This document shows positions 12,166 to 30,665 of a DNA stretch of 64,000 nt, in pieces (the stretch's first letter is position 1; the number at the start of each line of letters is the position of its first letter). The position numbers and the translations under genes are program-made. A model generated the notes under the pieces. It worked only from the letters and a program-made list of their open reading frames with translations. It ran no database searches and was not told where the DNA came from. Source of the DNA: an uncultured delta proteobacterium (GTDB lineage Bacteria; Desulfobacterota; Desulfobacteria; Desulfobacterales; B30-G6); assembly GCA_963823335.1 (NCBI GenBank), contig CAWGLD010000001.1, positions 1,312,001-1,376,000 of the forward strand, read 5' to 3'.

Positions 12166-13367
12166 TGCCAACGGAAAATCAGAATGACAACCTGTGCTGT
12201 GACCCCGCCAAAACGCCCCGTGTTAATGAAGGGCTAACAGAAATGCTACCCATTTACAGGGAAGGACCGCCAGATGAGGCTTGCTGCGGCCCACCACCAG
12301 GTCCTGCCAGCAGTCGATTTGAAAAACCGGGCTATCGTCTATGTGATTTCGTTGAAGGATTCATGGAGACCCCGACGGGGTCGGTGCCAAGAATAAAAAC
12401 GAGCCCTGAGAGATGGGATCTTCTCGGGAACATCATGGTTCGTCTGGGGATCAACAGAGGTCAGTATAAGGTGGCGCCCGGGCTTTACAGTATCGGTGAT
12501 GTCACGCCGCTGTCACCTGTTCTGGTAACGGCAAACTATAAGCTCACCTTCGATCTGCTGCGTCAGGACCTTCAGGGAGAATCTGCCTGGGTCCTGGTAT
12601 TGGATACCAGGGGCATCAATGTCTGGTGTGCGGCCGGTAAAAAAACATTTTCCACCGCTGAAGTGATTCACAGGGTCAAACAGACCCGTCTGCAGGAAGT
12701 CGTTAGCCACCGAAGACTGATTTTACCCCAATTATCGGCAACGGGTGTTTCAGGTAAACTGGTAACCAAAGGTTGCGGTTTCAGGGTGACCTGGGGACCG
12801 ATTCGGACAAAGGATATCAAGCCCTTTTTAAGGGCAGGTTTGAAGGCCGATAAAGCCATGCGGCGGGTGACATTTGGATTTGTGGAACGACTGATACTCG
12901 TGCCTGTCGAGCTGACCTTACTGCGCAAATATCTTTTGTGGATTTTTTTGGCGGGCTTTATCCTTTCAGGTGTTGGTCCTGGTCTTTTTTCCATCGGTCC
13001 GGCCTGGAGCCGCGGACTCGTCCTGATCGCAGCATGTGCTGTCGGGGTATTTTCGGGCGCCGTGGCGGTGCCGGTGCTGCTGCCCTGGGTACCTGGCAGG
13101 GCCTTTGCAGTCAAAGGTGTCATCATTGGGGTATTAACGGGTGCCGGTATGGTACTGGTGTTGGGAAAGTCGATCACCGTTGTGGAAGCAACGGCCATGA
13201 TTCTTTTGATCGGAGCTGTCAGTTCATATTTGGCCATGAATTTTACCGGGTCGACACCCTATACCTCCCCTTCGGGTGTAGAAAAGGAGATGCGGAAAGC
13301 CATGCCCTTTCAGGTCTTGGCGATAATTCTGTCCATTGCGGGCTGGGTTGGCTCGGTGTTTATTTAG
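12165..13367 (+). CDS. hgcA: Mercury methylation corrinoid protein HgcA
   Basis: Cap-helix motif NVWCAAGK, PGLY, VLVTANYKLTFD, LILPQLSATGV, C-terminal TM helices, NFTGSTPYTSPSGVEKEM; followed by hgcB. Confidence 0.96.
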   Translation: MPTENQNDNLCCDPAKTPRVNEGLTEMLPIYREGPPDEACCGPPPGPASSRFEKPGYRLCDFVEGFMETPTGSVPRIKTSPERWDLLGNIMVRLGINRGQYKVAPGLYSIGDVTPLSPVLVTANYKLTFDLLRQDLQGESAWVLVLDTRGINVWCAAGKKTFSTAEVIHRVKQTRLQEVVSHRRLILPQLSATGVSGKLVTKGCGFRVTWGPIRTKDIKPFLRAGLKADKAMRRVTFGFVERLILVPVELTLLRKYLLWIFLAGFILSGVGPGLFSIGPAWSRGLVLIAACAVGVFSGAVAVPVLLPWVPGRAFAVKGVIIGVLTGAGMVLVLGKSITVVEATAMILLIGAVSSYLAMNFTGSTPYTSPSGVEKEMRKAMPFQVLAIILSIAGWVGSVFI

Positions 13368-21126: not shown

Positions 21127-21372
21127 ATGCCAATATACGAATTTAAATGCCTGAAGTGTGAAGCGTTCTTCGAAATTCTTGTCATGAATAAACGTGAGTC
21201 AGTTGAGATGGTCTGTCCGGAATGCAATGCTGAAGATGTCGAGCGGGTTATCAGCAGCACCCATCATACCATCAACGCGGCATCCGGAACCAAGCAGGGT
21301 GCCGCGAGCCAGACACGAAACTGTTCCAGCGGGTCATGTACGACCTACACGATTCCAGGTCCAAACGGCTGA
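21127..21372 (+). CDS. FmdB family zinc-ribbon protein
   Basis: MPIYEFKCLKC...CPEC...VERVIS. Confidence 0.85.
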   Translation: MPIYEFKCLKCEAFFEILVMNKRESVEMVCPECNAEDVERVISSTHHTINAASGTKQGAASQTRNCSSGSCTTYTIPGPNG

Positions 21373-21407
21373 TACTTACACGCAAATTCCATCGTCAAGG
21401 TCATGTA

Positions 21408-22103
21408 ATGCATTCTATCCATCTTCAGGAAAAAGAACAGTTCAAGAAACTCTTTGAGCAGGAAGGTATCGACTACCTGGAAGACCGTATGAAGGTTCTG
21501 GAAGCTTTTTTTCAGACAGAACAGCACCTTTCAGAAGCTGAACTGTCCGAAATTATAAAAGATAAAAACCTGAGCCTGACACCTGCCTTTATTTCGGATA
21601 CCCTGGATCTCTTGTGCCGGTATGGATTTGCTCACCGGCACCGGTTTAATAACGGTGTCATTCAATATGAGCACCGGCATATCGGCCAGCATCATGACCA
21701 TATGATCTGCACCAAGTGTAACCAGATCATCGAGTTTAAAAATAATCAGCTTGAAGATCTTCAATTGCAGGTTGCGGCAACGCATGGGTTTCATATGCTG
21801 CAGCATAAAATGGAAATTTACGGCATCTGTACGCATTGTCTCAAGCGACGATTGTCTTTGATGCCGTTGATGGCGGCAAAACAGGGTGAGGTATTGATTG
21901 TCAGGCGTTTTAAAGGGGGCACCAGATCCCAGATGCGTCTGATGAGCATGGGCTTGCGGGTGGGGGACCGAATCGATGTGATTTCAAACCTGAACCAGGG
22001 GCAGCTAGTTATCGCTCTGGACTATAAACGGCTGGTTCTAGGACGCGGACTGGCGGAAAAAATAATGGTTCAGCCATTGGACCCGGAAGCGGGTGCGGCA
22101 TGA
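21408..22103 (+). CDS. Fur family transcriptional repressor fused to a FeoA domain
   Basis: HHDHMICTKC, EIYGICTHC; C-terminal RLMSMGLRVGDRI...LGRGLAEKIMV (FeoA). Confidence 0.88.
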   Translation: MHSIHLQEKEQFKKLFEQEGIDYLEDRMKVLEAFFQTEQHLSEAELSEIIKDKNLSLTPAFISDTLDLLCRYGFAHRHRFNNGVIQYEHRHIGQHHDHMICTKCNQIIEFKNNQLEDLQLQVAATHGFHMLQHKMEIYGICTHCLKRRLSLMPLMAAKQGEVLIVRRFKGGTRSQMRLMSMGLRVGDRIDVISNLNQGQLVIALDYKRLVLGRGLAEKIMVQPLDPEAGAA

Positions 22104-22535: not shown

Positions 22536-23537
22536 ATGCCGGCACCTGTACGTTTAAATAAAGCAAGGGATGTCATTGTCGGTATCGGCAACGCCCTTGT
22601 GGATATCCTTTCCCATGCAGACGATGTCTTTGTCGAGAAGACAGGTTTCGGGAAAGGCGGGATGAACTATGTTGACACAGACTTTATCGACAAGATGATT
22701 GCCATGGTGCCGGGCACGCCCGTTGTCGTTCCAGGTGGTTCGGCGTGCAACACCATCATCGGTGTGGGAAAACTCGGCGGTAAAGCCCGCTTCATAGGAA
22801 AATGTGGTCAAGACACCCTGGGAGATCTATTTAGCAAAGAGCTTCAAAACAGTCATGTGGATCCTTTTCTGATGACGAGTGCATTGTCCACCGGGAGGGT
22901 TTTTTCGATTGTGACACCCGATGCACAGCGTTCCATGTTTACATATCTTGGCGCGGCGTCTGAGTTGAGACCGGGCGAAATCGCCGGGTGTAGTTTTCTG
23001 GATGCAGCAGTGGTTCATATTGAAGGATACCTTCTCTTCAACAATGACTTGATTATGAAGGCTTTGAGTCGGGCAAAAGAGGATGGCGCCCTGATTTCCC
23101 TGGACCTGGCTAGCTATACGGTTGTTGAATCGTCTAAGATGCTATTGGAAACAATTGTTACCGAGTATGTTGACATTCTCATCGCCAATGAAGATGAGGC
23201 TGCTGTTTTCACTGGGCATTTTGATGAACGAAAGGCGATTGAAGCTCTCTCTGAAAGAGCCAGGATAGCGGTGTTGAAAGTCGGAGAGCGTGGGAGCTAT
23301 GTCGCGCAGGATGGCGAAATCGTAAAAATAGATCCCTTGGGAAAAGGTCCTGTCATCGATACCACCGGCGCAGGTGATTTATGGGCGTCCGGGTTTTTAT
23401 TTGGACTCACCCGGGGTTATTCTGTCGAAACGTGTGGCAGAATTGCCTCCGCTTGTGGCAGCGAGGTGTGTCAGGTTGTCGGTGCGACCATTCCCGATGA
23501 GGGCTGGGCACGCATAAAAAGGATATGGGAGGATTAA
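22536..23537 (+). CDS. PfkB family kinase (adenosine kinase-like)
   Basis: GIGNALVD, PGGSACNT, ANEDEA, DTTGAGD. Confidence 0.9.
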   Translation: MPAPVRLNKARDVIVGIGNALVDILSHADDVFVEKTGFGKGGMNYVDTDFIDKMIAMVPGTPVVVPGGSACNTIIGVGKLGGKARFIGKCGQDTLGDLFSKELQNSHVDPFLMTSALSTGRVFSIVTPDAQRSMFTYLGAASELRPGEIAGCSFLDAAVVHIEGYLLFNNDLIMKALSRAKEDGALISLDLASYTVVESSKMLLETIVTEYVDILIANEDEAAVFTGHFDERKAIEALSERARIAVLKVGERGSYVAQDGEIVKIDPLGKGPVIDTTGAGDLWASGFLFGLTRGYSVETCGRIASACGSEVCQVVGATIPDEGWARIKRIWED

Positions 23538-24226
23538 TGGCAAAACAGAAACGGGTTACACGAAAACAGCTGCTCAAGGAGCCGGATGAATTTATCACCA
23601 CTACCGGCAGGGTAATTGGATGGGGGAGGAAATATACAAGGCAATTGGCATATGCCGCAGGCGCCTTTTTGCTCCTCTTGGTGATCATTGCCGGGTATCG
23701 GTTTTTTTCAAGCAGTGCTGAAAACAAGGCTTTTTTGTTGCTTGATCAGGCCGTAGGCAAATATGAAGCCCAAAAAACGGACATGGATGCCCTTGTCGCC
23801 TATGAAGGTGCCAGGGAAGATTTTGAATATATCATCAATAAATATGACAATACAGAAGCGGGGAAGCTGGCGACAGTGGTGTTCGCCGGGATGAGCTATG
23901 ATGTGGGTGAGGCAGAAAAGGCGATTCAACTATACCAAGCCGCGTTGCCTTATTTTAAAGGCGATACGACCTATCAAAATTTTTTATGGAGTGGTCTTGG
24001 GTATTGTTATGAAAAAAAGAAGGATGTCCGTATGGCGATATCCTGGTTTGAGAAAATTGCCGATGGACAAGATCCGGTTGCCAAGGACGTGGCGCTGTTC
24101 AATATGGGCCGGCTCTATCACGAACTGGGAGATACGGCTAAAAGCAAACAGGCCTATGAAAGACTGGTGGCAGAACACACGGATTCCATCTACTATCAGT
24201 TGGCCATGGAAAAGATCGCCGGATGA
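23537..24226 (+). CDS. Membrane-anchored TPR protein (YfgM-like)
   Basis: RKQLLKEPDEF, single TM helix, TPR repeats; GGAGG RBS. Confidence 0.8.
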   Translation: MAKQKRVTRKQLLKEPDEFITTTGRVIGWGRKYTRQLAYAAGAFLLLLVIIAGYRFFSSSAENKAFLLLDQAVGKYEAQKTDMDALVAYEGAREDFEYIINKYDNTEAGKLATVVFAGMSYDVGEAEKAIQLYQAALPYFKGDTTYQNFLWSGLGYCYEKKKDVRMAISWFEKIADGQDPVAKDVALFNMGRLYHELGDTAKSKQAYERLVAEHTDSIYYQLAMEKIAG

Positions 24227-24303
24227 AATAGAAATGGCTAATCCTTTTATTCGGATTAGCCATTAAGGAGGAGAATAGATGAAAAATTTATTGGCAAACT
24301 GCC
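24226..24303 (-). ncRNA. Candidate sigma-54-dependent small RNA (~78 nt)
   Basis: Predicted +1 at 24303; 5' hairpin GGCA-GUU-UGCC, unpaired UUUUUCAUCUAUUCUCCUCCUU, then a 12-bp hairpin and U-rich tail. Confidence 0.55.
24233..24264. terminator. Intrinsic terminator hairpin (U-rich tail on the minus strand)
   Basis: AATGGCTAATCC-N8-GGATTAGCCATT perfect 12-bp stem. Confidence 0.7.
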
Positions 24304-24313
24304 AATTTGATAA

Positions 24314-24330
24314 TGCAATTTTGCTGCCAA
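24314..24330 (-). promoter_or_regulatory. Sigma-54 (-24/-12) promoter
   Basis: Minus strand TTGGCAGCAAAATTGCA versus consensus TGGCACG-N4-TTGCW, with exact GG/GC spacing. Confidence 0.7.
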
Positions 24331-24444
24331 GATGAAGTTTTTTTTCATAAAGGACGCAATTAATTATTTCTCTTAATTTTCAATATATTATCGAGCCAGT
24401 CTCCTCCATCATATATTGTCGTCTATCACCATAACCCCTGTCTA

Positions 24445-24481
24445 TTTCCAAATGGAAACTCGCTCGTTTCCATTTGGAAAC
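24445..24481. promoter_or_regulatory. Tandem palindromes: putative enhancer (UAS) for an NtrC-type activator; may also fold as a terminator of the regulator gene
   Basis: TTTCCA-AA-TGGAAA and TTTCCA-TT-TGGAAA about two helical turns apart, 140-180 nt upstream of the sigma-54 start. Confidence 0.6.
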
Positions 24482-24494
24482 AATGCTGCTTCTA

Positions 24495-25868
24495 TTAATC
24501 ACTGACGATTCCATACTTCTTCAGTTTTTTGTTGAATCCGCTTCTCCCGATACCTAGCAGTTGAGCGGCTTCGGATTGGACATGGTTGCAGCTTGTCAAT
24601 GCCCGTAAAAGCATTTTCTTTTCAATATCTGCAAGTGTTTCGAACAATCTTGCATCCATGGGAATGTTCTCCAGCTGAAGCTCTCTTGTGAGGTCGCTTT
24701 TGAAATATCTGGGTAAGTCGGAAACCCGGATAATGTCATCCGGGCATAAAACCATGGCGCGCTCAATTGTATTTTCAAGTTCTCTGATGTTGCCGGGCCA
24801 GTCATGCCGATAGAAAATCTGTTCCACTTCCCTTTCGATACCCTTGACAGGAACACCCATTCTTCTTTCGGCCGCATACTTGTCGATGAAATGGTCCACC
24901 AGGAGTCTCAGGTCTTCCACGCGCTGGCGCAATGGGGGTAGATCGATGTATACAACATTCAATCGATAAAAGAGATCTTCTCTGAAGCGCCCTTTCTTAA
25001 CCTCTTCCCTCAAGCGCTTGTTTGTGGCCGTAATCAACCGGAAATTAACTGCAACTTGTCGCAGTCCCCCGACTCTTTCAAAGATTTTGTCCTGCAGAAC
25101 CCGCAGCAGTTTTACCTGAAGAGATGGCGACAATTCACCTATTTCGTCTAGGAAGAGCGTTCCGCCTTCGGCCAACTCGAAGCGCCCCTTTTTTGTTGCG
25201 ACAGCACCGGTGAAGGCACCTTTTTCATGCCCGAAAAGCTCACTTTCGAGAAGGCTCTCCGCAAGAGCCGAGCAGTTGACCGCTATAAAAGGATGATTGT
25301 GGCGGGGGCTGTTGTAGTGAATCGACTTGGCAACCAGGTCTTTTCCAGTGCCACTTTCCCCTTCGATCAGGATAGAAGCAGTGACCGGGGCAATTTTTTT
25401 GATGAGGTCAAAAATATTCTGCATTTTTGGGCTCTTACCGATAATATTCCCAAAGCTGTACTGGGATTCGACGGTTTCACGCAAACGGCGGTTTTCTTTA
25501 ATGACCCGATACATCTGAATGGCTTTGTTGACATATATGACCAGACGTTCGTTATCAAACGGTTTCAAAATATAATTGTAGGCACCTTTTTGCATCGCTT
25601 CTACAGCTTTTTCAACCGTTCCATGTGCTGTCATCATGATGACCGGGATACCCGGGTCTTTTTCCTTGATCCGTTCCAGGAGCTCGATACCATCCATGGA
25701 CGGCATTTTCATATCGGTTAGTACCAGGTCAACATCTGAATTTTTCAAGACAGATAACGCCTCTTCGCCGCTATAGGCCGTCAGCGTTTCAAACCCTTCC
25801 TCTTCAAGAACCGCACTGAGTATTGGCGGATAGTTTTTTTCATCATCAACGATGAGTATCGTTTCCAT
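24495..25868 (-). CDS. Sigma-54-dependent response regulator (NtrC family)
   Basis: REC domain (VDDE, TDMKMP), [37 protein letters not shown], Fis-type HTH. Confidence 0.95.
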
Positions 25869-25908: not shown

Positions 25909-27318
25909 TTATCTTGCCGGCAGTTCCACTGTTACAGCGACACCCTTGTCGGAACGGTTTTCTATATGAACAACACCATTGTGGGCCTCAATGATATTCT
26001 TAACAATCCCCAGACCAAGACCGGTGCCTTTTTCCTTGGTGGTAAAAAACGGGTCCCATATTTTTGCGTTGATTTCTTCAGGGATGCCTCGCCCTTCATC
26101 AAGAAATTGAATTTTTACCAGGTCTGCCTCTGCAATGATGCTGATCTGGATGTTGCCTCCATCCGGCATTGCCTGCATGGCATTTATCAATATGTTCAAA
26201 AAAGCCTGGTAGAGCATATCTTTATCGGCCATGATCTCGGGAAGATCAGGCGCATACAGTGTATCGAATGTATATCCCTTATTTTTGGCTTCGGTTGCAA
26301 TAAATTTGAGGTTTTTTTCCAGAACCGCTTCTATCCGGCAGACGATGAAATCTGGTTGCCGGGGCCGGGCAAAATTCAGAAAGTCTGTTATGATATTGTT
26401 CAGGCGCCCACCTTCCTCGATAATGATATCGGGAATCGTGCTGGATGCATCGTATGATGCCATTTTCTTTTTCAGGAGTTCCGCCGAGCTTCTGATAATA
26501 CCCAGCGGGTTACGTATTTCATGTGAAACGCTCGCAACCATTTCGCCGATGGAGGACAAATGTTCGGCACGGTTGAGTTGCTCTTTGAGCCTGAGCTGCT
26601 CTTTTGCCCGCTGCTCGATGATGGATTCTCCTCTTTTTACAACAAAGAGGAGAATCAGAAAAAGCAGGATCATGACGGCCATGATGGTGATGACAACCAG
26701 AATCTGGAAATTGAAAATGGTCCGGTAACTATCGGTGATATCCTGTGTAATTTCAATTACACCAATGATCGGCCCGGTAATGGAGGCCAGGGATTTTTCC
26801 GCACGAAGGGGGGCAAATGTGGTCACCTTGATTGTTTTTGGGATTCCAAGCGTAATTTCCCAGAAGCCGCCGTTCTGTTCGATTTCCGATGTCGAAACAC
26901 CCATGAGAGCCGTCTGATAGGAATGACCGCCGATATCCTTGATCCCCATGAGTTCCTGGTCAAAACTATAGGCAATGATGTCGTTCAGGTCATACAGGTT
27001 GACCATTTCGATGCTATAGCCGTGAAGGGTTCCCCTTATGAGGGTGTCCATGCGTTCGTACTGGCTTTTATTCCTGAGTTGAATTTTACCGTATCGCAGG
27101 GACATGGGGATGATGAACTGCCTGAAAATCTGGTGATTCAGATTGGACACCAATAGTTGCGCGTACTCATCATTCTTTTTTAGCTGCAATTTACGTGCCC
27201 AATGGGTGTTCAGGTAGGAGAGCACGATGGCGCCGATAAATATGAAGATAAAACTGGTAATGGAAAAGTATTTGTAGAGTTTGAAGGATTTTGTTTTGTT
27301 TTGTGGTTTGGCTGTCAT
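25909..27318 (-). CDS. Sensor histidine kinase
   Basis: Two TM helices around a periplasmic domain; [34 protein letters not shown]. Confidence 0.93.
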
Positions 27319-27381: not shown

Positions 27382-28974
27382 TTACGGCAGGGGCACGCTG
27401 GAAAGTATCGTTTTGATATCATTATCCGAAAAATTCAGACCCGCACCGAAAAAGAACGATTCATTGTCGTCCTCGCTGATAAAATCGTCTAATCCTGCAG
27501 TAAGATAGAGGTGTGAGAAGGGGAAAAAGTCCACCCGTGTCTTCAGATGCGGATTATCTTCCAGGTCAAAATCAAACGATTCGAGGGATAAAACCACGCG
27601 GTCATCGAGCAGATAATAGTCCAGAGCGATACCGCCGGTCGATTCGAAAAGCCCACCCCTCAGTCCGATGTCATAATACCTTTTGGCAACCTGGGCTGAA
27701 AATTTCAATGAGTCATAATCCGTTTTTTCTTTATGCTTCTTGGTGGTTGTTCCATCAACGGTTTTCTTGGTTTCGGTGGTGGTCTTGGTTCCGGTTGGAT
27801 CGTCCACGATCTGAAACAGGTAATATTTATCTTCTTTGGGCTGGATTCGTAGGGACAAATAAGATTTCAGGGCTTCTTCCTTGGTCAGGTATTCGCCCCG
27901 GTAGTCCAGATACGCTTGAAAGGTTTCCTGCTTTTCCATGTACGTGTTCAGATGGGTCAATGTTTCATTAAGGGTCTCCACGGTTTCTTCGTCGCGGACA
28001 AGTCTTCCGATGGTACCTTCACCCCGATTGATGGTGGCTGTGATATCGCTGAGAGACGCCAGGGTTTTGTTGAGATTCTGAATTGAATCCTCTTTAGTGA
28101 TGAGCTGACCCAGGGTGCCTTCTCCGTTTTTAATCCGATCGGTAATTTCCTTGAGGGACGCCAGGGTCTGGTTCAGGCTCTCTACGGTCTCATCATTATT
28201 GATAAGTCTGCCGATACTCCCTTGACCTTGATTGATTTTATCTGTAATTTCAGTCAGGTTTGCCACCAGGGGTTTCATGGTTCCGATAACGCTCCTGGTG
28301 CTGCTGATGATGCTGCCGATATCCTCCTTATTACCTTCGCCAATCTCTTTTAATGTTCCGGTAAAGGTGATCAGGTTGTCAACGATGACATCAATATTCT
28401 CTCTGTTTTTCTGGACTGTCTGGTTCAATGCCGTCACCACTTCTTGGACATTGTTAATAATCGCGCGAAGCGTGGCTTCTCCGGAATCCGTGCCGAGGAC
28501 CCTCGAGAGCGAACGGGTGAGGTCGTTGATGTTTGTAGCGACCTCACCCAGGGTGTTCATGAGCACATCCATGTCGGTGATGGGAGCTGTGCGGGTAATG
28601 CGTCCGCCCGGCGAGATAGGCGGTGCCGTAACCGAACCAGGTATAAGCTCGACGTATTTATCCCCCAGGATTCCCCGGGTTCGAATGATCGCAGTGTCCT
28701 CTTTACGGATGATAAGGCCCGGGTTCATCCTAAGCACAACCAGAGCTTTCCCATTTTGCAGGGCAATGGTCTGGACCTGTCCGACTTCAACACCGGCTAT
28801 CTCGACACTGACGTCTTTGACCAGTCCGGTGGCGGAATCGAACAGCACTTCGATATCATACCCTTTTTTTGTGGAAAAGGTCAGGTTTCCCACCTTCATG
28901 GACATATAGCCGAAAATGATAAGCCCGATGATGACAAAAAGACCCACTTTTGCTTCAGCACTGAAATTCGACAT
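27382..28974 (-). CDS. mlaD: MCE/MlaD family protein with long helical repeat region
   Basis: EAKVGLFV, GVEVGQV, GILGDKYVELIPG, three G(Q/E)G(S/T)(I/L)G(R/Q)L repeats. Confidence 0.85.
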   Translation of the reverse strand: MSNFSAEAKVGLFVIIGLIIFGYMSMKVGNLTFSTKKGYDIEVLFDSATGLVKDVSVEIAGVEVGQVQTIALQNGKALVVLRMNPGLIIRKEDTAIIRTRGILGDKYVELIPGSVTAPPISPGGRITRTAPITDMDVLMNTLGEVATNINDLTRSLSRVLGTDSGEATLRAIINNVQEVVTALNQTVQKNRENIDVIVDNLITFTGTLKEIGEGNKEDIGSIISSTRSVIGTMKPLVANLTEITDKINQGQGSIGRLINNDETVESLNQTLASLKEITDRIKNGEGTLGQLITKEDSIQNLNKTLASLSDITATINRGEGTIGRLVRDEETVETLNETLTHLNTYMEKQETFQAYLDYRGEYLTKEEALKSYLSLRIQPKEDKYYLFQIVDDPTGTKTTTETKKTVDGTTTKKHKEKTDYDSLKFSAQVAKRYYDIGLRGGLFESTGGIALDYYLLDDRVVLSLESFDFDLEDNPHLKTRVDFFPFSHLYLTAGLDDFISEDDNESFFFGAGLNFSDNDIKTILSSVPLP

Positions 28975-28980
28975 GATTTC

Positions 28981-29724
28981 CTAACCCCTGTCAGGGATAA
29001 ATTTACATTCGACAAACTGTCTTAGTACCGGATTGCTCGAGGACCTTATATCTTCCGGAGATCCATAGGCAATGATCTTGCCATTATACAACATTGCGAC
29101 CCTGTGGGCAATTTTAAAGGTCGATTCGATGTCATGGCTGATAACCACACAGGTTGCGCCAGTATTTTGCTGGGTCTCGACGATGAGCTGATCGATGGCA
29201 TCACACATGATGGGGTCAAGACCGGTAGTGGGTTCGTCGAATAGGATAATTTTGGGGTCGAGAGCAAGGGCTCTGGCGAGTCCGACCCGCTTGCGCATTC
29301 CTCCGGACAATTCCGAAGGTAATTTTTCCGTTACACCTTTTAGCCCAACCTGCAGCAGTTTTTCCGTGACAAGCCGTTGTACTTCTTTTTTCGAAAGTCG
29401 CCGATGTTCATTGAGAGGGAAAGCCACGTTTTCGCCAACGGTCATGGAATCGAAGAGGGCCGCATCCTGAAAAAGCATACCGAAATTTTTACGCATTTCG
29501 TTCAACCCTGCCTCATTCAATCCGGAGATATCGATGTCGTCTACAAGGATTCGACCCGAATCCGGTTTGACGAGACCGATAATATGTTTCAAAAGGACAC
29601 TCTTGCCTCCTCCGCTCTGACCGATGATAACGGTAATTTTTTTTGATTCAATGGTCAGATCGAGTTCATCCAGAACCTGTTGTTTACCAAAGGATTTTGA
29701 AATATTTTCGAGTGTAATTTTCAA
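28981..29724 (-). CDS. mlaF: ABC transporter ATP-binding protein MlaF/Mkl
   Basis: GQSGGGKS, FQDAALFDSM, LSGGMRKRVGLARA, DEPTTGLDP. Confidence 0.9.
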   Translation of the reverse strand: MKITLENISKSFGKQQVLDELDLTIESKKITVIIGQSGGGKSVLLKHIIGLVKPDSGRILVDDIDISGLNEAGLNEMRKNFGMLFQDAALFDSMTVGENVAFPLNEHRRLSKKEVQRLVTEKLLQVGLKGVTEKLPSELSGGMRKRVGLARALALDPKIILFDEPTTGLDPIMCDAIDQLIVETQQNTGATCVVISHDIESTFKIAHRVAMLYNGKIIAYGSPEDIRSSSNPVLRQFVECKFIPDRG

Positions 29725-30491
29725 AACATAACCGTGGTCAGAAAGTAATCGCTGATCAATATGGACACGGATGCGTAGACAACGGCCTGGGTGGTCGCTC
29801 TCCCCACGCCGGCAGCGCCGCCGGTGGTGTTAAAGCCCTTGTAACAGCCGATCAAGGTCAAGATCAAACCAAAAACAGCAGATTTTATCAACCCGTTGAA
29901 AATGTCATGGATAGTGACGAATTCGATGATTCTGGCAACAAAGATACCGGAGTTGATATTCAGCAGGTGAACACCCACAAAATAGCCACCCAGGATACCG
30001 ATGAAGTCCGAGGTGACCGTCAATATGGGCAGCATGACGATTCCGGCCAAGATACGGGGCATGATGAGATATTGAACCGGATTTACAGACATGGTGTAGA
30101 GTGCGTCGATCTGTTCTGTAACACGCATGGTTCCGATTTCGGCGGCCATGGAAGAACCCGTCCGTCCGGTAACCATCAAGGCGGTGATTGCGGGGCCCAA
30201 TTCTCTGGTCATAGACAACGCCACGGTTGCGCCCACAAGACTTTCCCCCCCAAACATTCTAAAGCCATAGTAAGTCTGTATGGCGAGAACCATTCCGGTG
30301 AAAGCGCCGGTTATCAGAACCACGGGCAAGGAACCGACCCCTACAAATGCCATTTGTTTGAAGATAACGTGAAATCGGAAAGGTGGCCGGAAGAGCCACG
30401 AAACCGTTGATAGAAACAGGAGTAAAACTTTGCCGAATTCTTCTGTTAAAAGAATGAAGGGTCTACCGCTGAGCTCGAGAATTTTTATCAT
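29721..30491 (-). CDS. mlaE: ABC transporter permease MlaE
   Basis: GVGSLPVV, RELGP, AEIGTMRVTEQIDAL, GVGRATT. Confidence 0.92.
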   Translation of the reverse strand: MIKILELSGRPFILLTEEFGKVLLLFLSTVSWLFRPPFRFHVIFKQMAFVGVGSLPVVLITGAFTGMVLAIQTYYGFRMFGGESLVGATVALSMTRELGPAITALMVTGRTGSSMAAEIGTMRVTEQIDALYTMSVNPVQYLIMPRILAGIVMLPILTVTSDFIGILGGYFVGVHLLNINSGIFVARIIEFVTIHDIFNGLIKSAVFGLILTLIGCYKGFNTTGGAAGVGRATTQAVVYASVSILISDYFLTTVMF

Positions 30492-30665
30492 AAAGACCTG
30501 TTGTGAACATTCTAACCCGTCCGATAAAATGTGTCGATCACATGGCCGATGGTTCAATATCAGAACATATAGGGAAGGAAGCGAATAAAGTCAAGAGCAT
30601 GCGGCGTCTAAAGAAGTTTCCCGCCATATTTGTACGCAACGGGATAAAATTGTCGCTTTGAAGCA

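Follow-up and report, generated by a model that had tools for sequence, protein, structure and literature searches.

Between two convergent genes of an uncultured delta proteobacterium belonging to the order Desulfobacterales, a short gap within the 64,000-nt stretch of DNA considered here carries a sigma-54 promoter pattern on the minus strand, with no protein-coding gene in front of it. The locus raises the question of what such a promoter could serve. A preliminary description, made from the sequence, had proposed a minus-strand, sigma-54-dependent small RNA (sRNA) whose seed is complementary to a translation start. The explanation favoured here, to which we assign a probability of about 0.72, is that a two-component response regulator acting with sigma-54 drives a trans-acting sRNA of about 78 nt, which pairs with the translation starts of porins and other exported proteins and lowers their synthesis. 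In what follows the window is the whole 64,000-nt stretch, coordinates are its positions, and the order compared is Desulfobacterales.

All the elements are located in the 270-bp gap between a TPR-repeat gene (23525-24226, plus strand) and a gene for a sigma-54-dependent response regulator (24495-25868, minus strand), which face each other as convergent genes. The promoter, TTGGCAGCAAAATTGCA, occupies positions 24330-24314 of the minus strand, and its core, TGGCAG-CAAAA-TTGCA (24329-24314), has the -24 GG and the -12 GC in the canonical spacing. The predicted start of transcription, G24303, is found 12 nt past the C of TTGC. From this point the predicted RNA, delimited by its fold and its homologues, runs on the minus strand to the end of its U tail (24226-24303). 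It begins with a 5' hairpin, GGCAGUUUGCC (24293-24303, GGCA-GUU-UGCC), continues with the unpaired seed AAUAAAUUUUUCAUCUAUUCUCCUCCUU (24265-24292), which comprises an anti-Shine-Dalgarno (anti-SD) tract, a spacer, an anti-AUG and the complements of codons 2-4, and ends in an intrinsic terminator (24223-24264), where a 12-bp stem with an 8-nt loop (24264-24233) is followed by the U-rich tail UCUAUUUCAU. Folding of the 82-nt stretch with ViennaRNA gives two hairpins and an open middle at -23.3 kcal/mol (z = -5.25), and none of 200 shuffled sequences was as stable. The promoter, the start site, the 5' hairpin, the unpaired seed, the 12-bp stem and the U-rich tail of the preliminary description were each found in place.

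The same description had spoken of a promoter with no gene to drive. This is correct with respect to the flanking genes, which are convergent, but the sRNA lies on the same strand as the genes of a sensor histidine kinase (25909-27318, minus strand) and of the response regulator, directly downstream of both, and the promoter is therefore not orphaned from its likely activator. The window contains two matches to the pattern TGGCA-N6-TTGCW, where 0.43 would be expected, and 7 of 100 shuffles had two or more. The promoter pattern alone is weak evidence, not significant within the window, and the case therefore rests on conservation. The other exact match to this pattern is located at 13094-13109 on the plus strand (TGGCAGGGCCTTTGCA).

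An intergenic BLAST search against 61 relatives found the element in eight of the nine remaining genomes from the genus and also beyond it, in several further families. The homologues have in common the promoter, a near-invariant AAUAAUUUUUUCAUCUGUUCUCCUCCUUAA, and, before a T run, a hairpin that has changed in sequence while remaining paired. An alignment of 20 homologues (A1) served to construct a covariance model (R1), which starts at the predicted +1 and excludes the promoter. At E<=1e-3, R1 matches 106 of the 151 sampled genomes of the order and 76 of 110 genera, and about 84 genomes, by our own count, remain at the stricter threshold of E<=1e-6. The figure of 106 is an upper one, some of the weak R1 matches being antisense porin starts (those in the genomes designated G118, G039, G043 and G091 are of this kind), and this has to be set against the reading favoured here. 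Outside the order, 5 of 146 genomes of the phylum match, one of them at an antisense gene start. An exact-pattern scan gave matches in records of Desulfobacterales, Desulfobacteraceae, Desulfosarcina, Desulfatitalea, Desulfonema and Desulfatibacillum; its matches in Firmicutes are most likely ordinary gene starts. The promoter, which is no part of the model, accompanies it: at 28 of the 30 best R1 loci the pattern [TCA]GGCA-N5-7-[TA][TG]GC is present about 47 nt upstream of CAUC, the 29th has TGGCCC-N5-TTGCA, and the remaining locus was not orientable by the script. To judge from these comparisons, the sRNA locus is not a chance site.

The sRNA is single-copy in its own genome. Across the genomes the number of copies ranges from one to four, and some are arranged in tandem. 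Two tandem pairs have their members about 290-500 bp apart (G062:C1:4038535-4039114 and G158:C1:3672679-3673046) and a third has them 2.7 kb apart (G112:C2:347399-350185). Genomes G088 and G103 have four R1 matches each, which resembles multi-copy sRNA families. Three sRNA-like elements from outside the order (L070 in genome G255, and L071 and L072 in genus g141) each combine a sigma-54 promoter with a C/U-rich stretch and a terminator, but their seed has diverged (UAUCUCCUUUCCUUG or CAUCUCUUCUCUCCUUU); a distant relationship to the family is possible. A scan of 23900-24700 against Rfam 15 found no family near its gathering score. The best match (E=0.14) was a microRNA model on a palindrome upstream of the promoter, and the next, RsaJ, rli38 and rliE, had E=0.66 or above, far below their gathering scores. 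This is consistent with an undescribed family.

The configuration of the RNA is conserved together with its sequence blocks. In alignment A1 the terminator stem has compensatory double changes at 9 of its 12 pairs, and the seed is unpaired in the consensus fold and forms a nearly invariant block. The 5' hairpin, which had been described as part of the RNA, is present and folds in the window, but it lies outside the conserved structure of the 20 homologues and is specific to this genome. The stem of A1 contains 10 G-U cells versus 2 A-C or C-A cells, and the T run is found on the minus strand only; the excess of G-U over A-C and C-A therefore favours the minus strand.

These features bear on the simplest alternative, in which the hairpin serves only to terminate transcription of the convergent TPR gene, or of both strands, the -24/-12 match is due to chance, and the gap holds no RNA gene. 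The stem-loop does begin only 7 nt past the stop codon of the TPR gene, which abuts the sRNA terminator, and the insignificance of the promoter pattern in the window would be expected. However, the stem is followed by no T run on the plus strand, the module is kept in 18 of 29 loci without both the TPR and the response-regulator genes, and the promoter is found with its putative upstream activating sequence (UAS) at nearly all loci. Of the explanations considered here, we regard this one as the least probable.

The opposite strand of the seed also requires attention. Here the sequence reads AAGGAGGAGAATAG-ATG, followed by 17 more codons, so that an 18-codon open reading frame (ORF), MKNLLANCQFDNAILLPR, is present on the plus strand at 24280-24336 behind a perfect SD sequence. 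The plus strand has a real-looking SD-ATG start, and the seed is therefore in part anti-SD and anti-AUG, the same bases being read on opposite strands. If this ORF were the product of the locus, the minus-strand promoter and terminator would be incidental. The frame is open, and AAGGAGGAG-N4-ATG would make an excellent ribosome-binding site. However, when the equivalent ORF is read from the ATG that faces CAU, its length is anywhere between 2 and 43 codons, 48 loci yield 37 distinct versions, and only MKK(L/I)(L/I), the stretch opposite the seed, is common to them (two versions read ATA at the start position chosen by the script, where one anchor may be off). The conserved parts are the promoter, seed and terminator of the minus strand, and both the T run and the G-U pairs fit that strand. 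The chance that the ORF is the product appears very small. A conserved plus-strand peptide beside a promoter and seed that are not conserved was the pattern that the preliminary description had named as fatal to its proposal, and the opposite pattern was found.

As a gene for a small protein or a leader peptide, the ORF was rejected and is judged a non-gene, since beyond the stretch opposite the seed its length and residues vary among the 48 homologous loci. It represents a class of spurious small ORF calls, in which a perfect SD-ATG is merely the mirror image of an sRNA seed.

The likely activator of the promoter can be proposed from the DNA between it and the stop codon of the response-regulator gene. 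Two 16-bp palindromes of the form (A/G)TTTCCAWWTGGAAAC are located at 24444-24459 and 24466-24481 (strand not applicable), with 22 bp between their centres and at a distance of about 115-165 bp from the promoter on its upstream side. They are a putative enhancer (UAS) for the adjacent regulator, which consists of a receiver domain, an AAA+ sigma-54 activator domain and a Fis-type helix-turn-helix (Sigma54_activat and HTH_8). Twenty-eight loci have upstream DNA of sufficient length, and in each of them a palindrome of this putative UAS lies 100-300 bp before the promoter; control windows downstream contain a palindrome in only 0/29 and 1/29 cases. The window-type pair, TTTCCAWWTGGAAA, occurs in 5 loci and GTTCAAA-N2-TTTGAAC in 23, the latter often present twice or three times at intervals of about 77 bp. 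The palindrome motif is the same whether the sRNA copy is linked to the regulator gene or unlinked. The GTTTCCAWWTGGAAAC form, with two sites 22 bp apart, belongs to loci L041, L051, L055, L056 and L059. That two forms of palindrome exist while the response-regulator orthologues stay 62-76% identical suggests that DNA-binding specificity has switched within a single module.

The order of response regulator, sRNA and convergent TPR gene is retained in 11 of 29 oriented loci, the window included, with an identity of the regulators of 62-76%. In all seven loci that were extended, the pair of kinase and regulator genes is found upstream of the sRNA, and in three of the seven MlaEFD genes are found upstream of this pair. 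Conservation downstream of orthologous regulators, which the preliminary description had led one to look for, is present in this form. The other 18 loci have different neighbours, and several are located between MFS-like and amidohydrolase-like genes. Five genomes with an unlinked sRNA were considered, and all five encode an orthologue of the regulator elsewhere (69-72% identity, the next paralogue having 48% or less). The recurrence of the palindromes is the signature of one orthologous enhancer-binding regulator, which would control the sRNA throughout the order and presumably bind the palindromes. With the promoter, palindromes, seed and terminator covariation conserved order-wide, the central proposal of a minus-strand, sigma-54-dependent sRNA with a start-region seed is supported by the comparison.

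The variety of neighbours is also informative for an action in cis. The RNA could be antisense to read-through from the convergent gene, since it overlaps the 3' flank of the TPR transcript, or it could be the terminated leader of a downstream gene in other genomes, several of which have an amidohydrolase-like gene on the same strand within about 100-370 nt downstream. However, the neighbours vary among loci and the seed is invariant. In the window no same-strand gene is located downstream before the convergent gene, and the complementarity of the seed to unlinked porin starts, described below, would be left unexplained. An action in cis is therefore improbable, if somewhat less so than a plus-strand product.

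In the trans-acting mechanism that we favour, a periplasm-sensing histidine kinase (25909-27318) would phosphorylate the response regulator (24495-25868), which would then bind the two palindromes (24444-24481) and activate the sigma-54 promoter (24314-24330). The signal would presumably be received in the periplasm: the kinase has an AtoS/ZraS-like core and two hydrophobic segments separated by a loop of about 160 residues, as in periplasm-sensing kinases. The sigma factor is available, since rpoN is encoded in the same genome (Sigma54_DBD match of 207 bits on contig C6). The transcript would stop at the intrinsic terminator (24233-24264), and its 28-nt unpaired seed would pair with mRNAs that encode exported envelope proteins, from the SD sequence and spacer through the AUG to codons 2-4. 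Foremost among the predicted targets are porins of a Porin_4-like family, together with other beta-barrel proteins of the outer membrane. Such pairing would occlude the 30S binding site and lower the synthesis of the target protein.

The prediction of these targets was derived from a search in trans with a 25-mer seed complement, allowing up to 3 mismatches, in the 151 genomes. An ungapped scan of the own genome had given no near-perfect trans site, the best score being 50 of 67. Besides the sRNA loci themselves, the 25-mer matched a number of other places, and 18 of these trans sites were inspected. All of them are gene starts with the ATG in register, and 16 of the 18 have signal-peptide-like N-termini. 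Six sites belong to one family of proteins of 400-550 residues (in genomes G092, G130, G037 and G025, and twice in G085), and the G037 member has a Pfam Porin_4 match above threshold. Three more are Phenol_MetA_deg outer-membrane proteins. The remaining sites resemble the starts of pilin, lipoprotein, binding-protein, HU and PII genes, names which come from reading the N-termini only. With a profile built for the porin family, members were detected in 63 of the 151 genomes. The weak matches of R1 in G118, G039, G043 and G091 are the antisense of the start of this porin, which also speaks for porins as targets.

HU/IHF-like gene starts (MNKLEL..., again named from the N-terminus only) are among the better seed matches in L200 (genome G072) and in G000:C1. 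IHF commonly assists sigma-54 promoters, and a feedback through such a target is conceivable.

Duplexes of the majority seed were predicted for the start regions of 28 porin orthologues, after another, whose start was unclear, had been set aside. They range from -16 to -36 kcal/mol, and 22 of them are stronger than the 1% tail (-23.3) of a background of 3931 gene starts in the own genome, which comes from our own crude ORF caller. In G037 the variant seed UUUUUCUCC is mirrored in the start of its own porin, GGAGAAAAA, and the two form 27 consecutive pairs at -36.2 kcal/mol. In G025 a variant of the seed, UUUUCCUCC, is mirrored in its own porin, GGAGGAAAA, and in G019 the seed variant is partly mirrored. 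Over 11 genomes, cognate pairs of seed and porin have a mean of -29.7 kcal/mol versus -27.3 for non-cognate pairs, and 128 of 20000 permutations were as good. Porin starts of genomes with a detected sRNA pair with the seed at -28.9 (n=17) versus -24.6 in genomes without it (n=11; Mann-Whitney p=0.007), and starts at or below -31 number 10/17 and 0/11, respectively; the genomes compared are related, so that these p-values overstate independence. A conserved unpaired seed complementary to conserved targets, with co-variation between them, is the mark of a trans-encoded base-pairing sRNA, and it was found here.

Two further porin-family genes may be mentioned. In genome G015 the sRNA (C1:620767-620846) is located only about 2.5 kb from a porin-family gene that is a predicted target (C1:623383-624858). 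The porin orthologue of G108 (L246, G108:C165:40786-42411) has AGG where its relatives have ATG, together with one in-frame TGA; gene decay or a misassembly could account for this.

The main rival to porin silencing also accepts a real sigma-54-driven RNA, but regards it as a general mimic of mRNA-recognition elements, which would damp strong-SD, MKK-type starts or titrate a protein or an RNA. The seed indeed resembles the 3' end of 16S rRNA in its anti-SD tract and the initiator anticodon in its CAU. It is near-invariant over the order, as would be expected with many simultaneous targets. The best-pairing starts of the own genome are mixed and include MscL, DnaK, IF-2, the porin and several substrate-binding proteins, with signal-peptide-like proteins making up 12 of the top 40 versus 10% overall. 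The pilin-like, lipoprotein-like, HU-like and PII-like starts among the trans matches elsewhere, and the failure to find Hfq discussed below, would also agree with it.

The spacer between the SD sequence and the start codon helps to distinguish the two. (A/G)ACAG or ATAG directly before the ATG, matching CUGU or CUAU of the seed, is present in 12/28 porin starts by hand count. Generic sites of the form AAGGAGG-N7-ATGAAAAA have this spacer in 2 among the 141 listed, also by hand count and resting on 150 of 299 matches, and one of the two is a porin. Generic SD and AUG-AAAAA sites rarely have the spacer of the seed, and a purely generic reading is therefore disfavoured. In addition, the seed variants co-vary with the cognate porin, and the complementarity of porins is lower in genomes without the sRNA. 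A general mimic is accordingly unlikely, though it deserves more weight than the explanations by cis action, plus-strand product or TPR terminator.

Several points weigh against porin silencing, beside the relatedness of the genomes and the crude background already stated. Any MKK... gene with strong translation will be favoured by a seed that is the complement of an idealised start, and the demands of translation may by themselves account for such starts in highly expressed porins. In the own genome, the porin homologue (424 residues with a signal peptide) ranks 4th of the 3931 starts at -25.3 kcal/mol, and its duplex is interrupted, consisting of 9 bp and 10 bp with an internal loop. The starts of MscL, DnaK and IF-2 rank above it, and specificity in the own genome is therefore modest. 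The assignment of this protein as a porin rests on an end-to-end alignment to the Porin_4-positive protein of G037 (25% identity, E=3e-7), as a Pfam search with it gave no significant family. A single-protein search of the own genome with the G037 porin gave no match, and the homologue emerged from the duplex ranking and the profile search. Pairing of the seed with the genes of the operon itself or with the TPR gene is unremarkable (ranks 430-3891). The start of a Cys-rich ORF (11532), which had been suggested as a target, gives -18.7 kcal/mol and rank 163/3931; this candidate falls away as generic SD similarity, a possibility that had been raised with it.

Two further points of this kind concern transcription and Hfq. 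Six metatranscriptome runs from estuary RNA libraries contain part of the region, and four of them were compared with the window. Their contigs cover 24188-24568 (run X10), 24272-24542 (X16) and 23846-24285 (X8). These Logan contigs are unstranded, have a depth like that of the flanks and could derive from DNA carry-over, and they neither show nor exclude the sRNA. The strain in X10 and X16 is a related one with 19 differences over 381 nt, and among the differences listed none falls in 24226-24301, which contains the seed and terminator; this is only a hint of constraint on these parts. Hfq (PF17209) was not found in the own genome, which is 93.9% complete and in which the control families matched; its absence is not proven, but to this extent the RNA does not fit the Hfq-dependent class of sRNAs. 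The long duplexes predicted for this sRNA may make Hfq unnecessary.

A broader role may also be considered. The sRNA could be an order-wide, Hfq-independent initiation-site decoy, by which one periplasm-sensing sigma-54 two-component system would at once silence a major fraction of the secreted and outer-membrane proteins, those with MKK(L/I)(L/I) starts. In the seed an anti-Lys-Lys-Leu/Ile tract follows the anti-SD tract and the CAU, and porin mRNAs would be its best-matched partners, co-evolving with it. We consider this doubtful, about on a par with the general mimic. If it were true, the frequent linkage to MlaEFD would make the sRNA the post-transcriptional arm of a response that balances outer-membrane lipid and protein, in bacteria for which no equivalent sRNA arm has been described. 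In the window, genes of this type are found upstream of the kinase on the same minus strand: an MlaD/MCE protein (27382-28974), an MlaF-like ATPase (28981-29724) and an MlaE-family permease (29721-30557). Elsewhere in the window, at 21336-22103 on the plus strand, a protein of 255 residues has a FUR-family domain and, at its C-terminus, a FeoA domain.

The sRNA of Desulfobacterales, as we interpret it, can be compared with several known systems. Among the sulfate reducers of marine sediments, Desulfobacterales are a major group, and the module leads to a testable hypothesis of how they might adjust the permeability of the outer membrane. Its parts are unusually complete and readable from sequence, with a seed that spans the whole initiation region. 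In Enterobacteria, MicA and RybB (under sigma-E), MicF and MicC, and OmrA/B pair at the starts of outer-membrane protein mRNAs and lower porin synthesis. The present sRNA is like them in small size and intrinsic terminator, and would be so in its envelope-related signal and its start-region pairing. However, the enterobacterial sRNAs are unrelated in sequence, are controlled by sigma-E or OmpR, depend on Hfq and have short seeds, while the present one has sigma-54 with an enhancer-binding regulator, predicted duplexes of 19-27 bp, and a genome in which Hfq was not found.

Other sRNAs driven by sigma-54 and an enhancer-binding protein are those of the systems LuxO-Qrr, GlrR-GlmY and CbrB-CrcZ, and Pxr of Myxococcus. 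They have in common with the present case a regulator of the NtrC family and a -24/-12 promoter before the sRNA, which is often located beside the regulator gene and is present in several copies in some genomes. They differ in sequence and in output, which is the control of quorum-sensing regulators, a decoy for GlmZ, an Hfq/Crc sponge, and development, respectively. To our knowledge, none of Qrr, GlmY, CrcZ and Pxr has been reported with a full seed of anti-SD, spacer and anti-AUG aimed at porins.

With respect to its targets, the present sRNA resembles NcS25 of Burkholderia cenocepacia, a conserved sRNA whose conserved predicted targets are porins and which represses a porin through the 5' untranslated region and start region (PMC10117139). 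Both have a terminator at the neighbouring gene, which in NcS25 is a bidirectional one shared with that gene. NcS25 differs in belonging to Betaproteobacteria and in being constitutive, and no sigma-54 motif is reported upstream of it (PMC10117139).

A full-text literature search found no description of the RNA presented here and no functionally interpreted sRNA for Desulfobacterales. The preliminary description had spoken of an undescribed two-component/sRNA circuit. This holds for the family, which appears to be undescribed, but not for the layout, which two reports already give for Desulfovibrio vulgaris (PMC3333781, PMC4641369). The circuit type is known, and the sRNA is a new order-wide family.

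The closest comparison in layout is with these modules of D. vulgaris Hildenborough. There the sigma-54-dependent response regulators DVU0679 (with Dv_sRNA2) and DVU0653 have as their target a noncoding RNA (ncRNA) just downstream of their own gene (Rajeev et al. 2011; Kazakov et al. 2015; PMC3333781, PMC4641369). In these modules the binding motif was validated and a sigma-54 promoter is present; the ncRNAs are stated to be of unknown function, and neither a target nor a seed was reported (PMC3333781, PMC4641369). Outside the order R1 matched almost nothing (5 of 146 genomes of the phylum), and the likeness noted here is one of layout. The two cases agree in phylum and in having an sRNA gene directly behind that of a two-component sigma-54 regulator, and the predicted silencing of porins by the sRNA of Desulfobacterales may suggest a function for the unexplained Desulfovibrio modules of a regulator with its own ncRNA.

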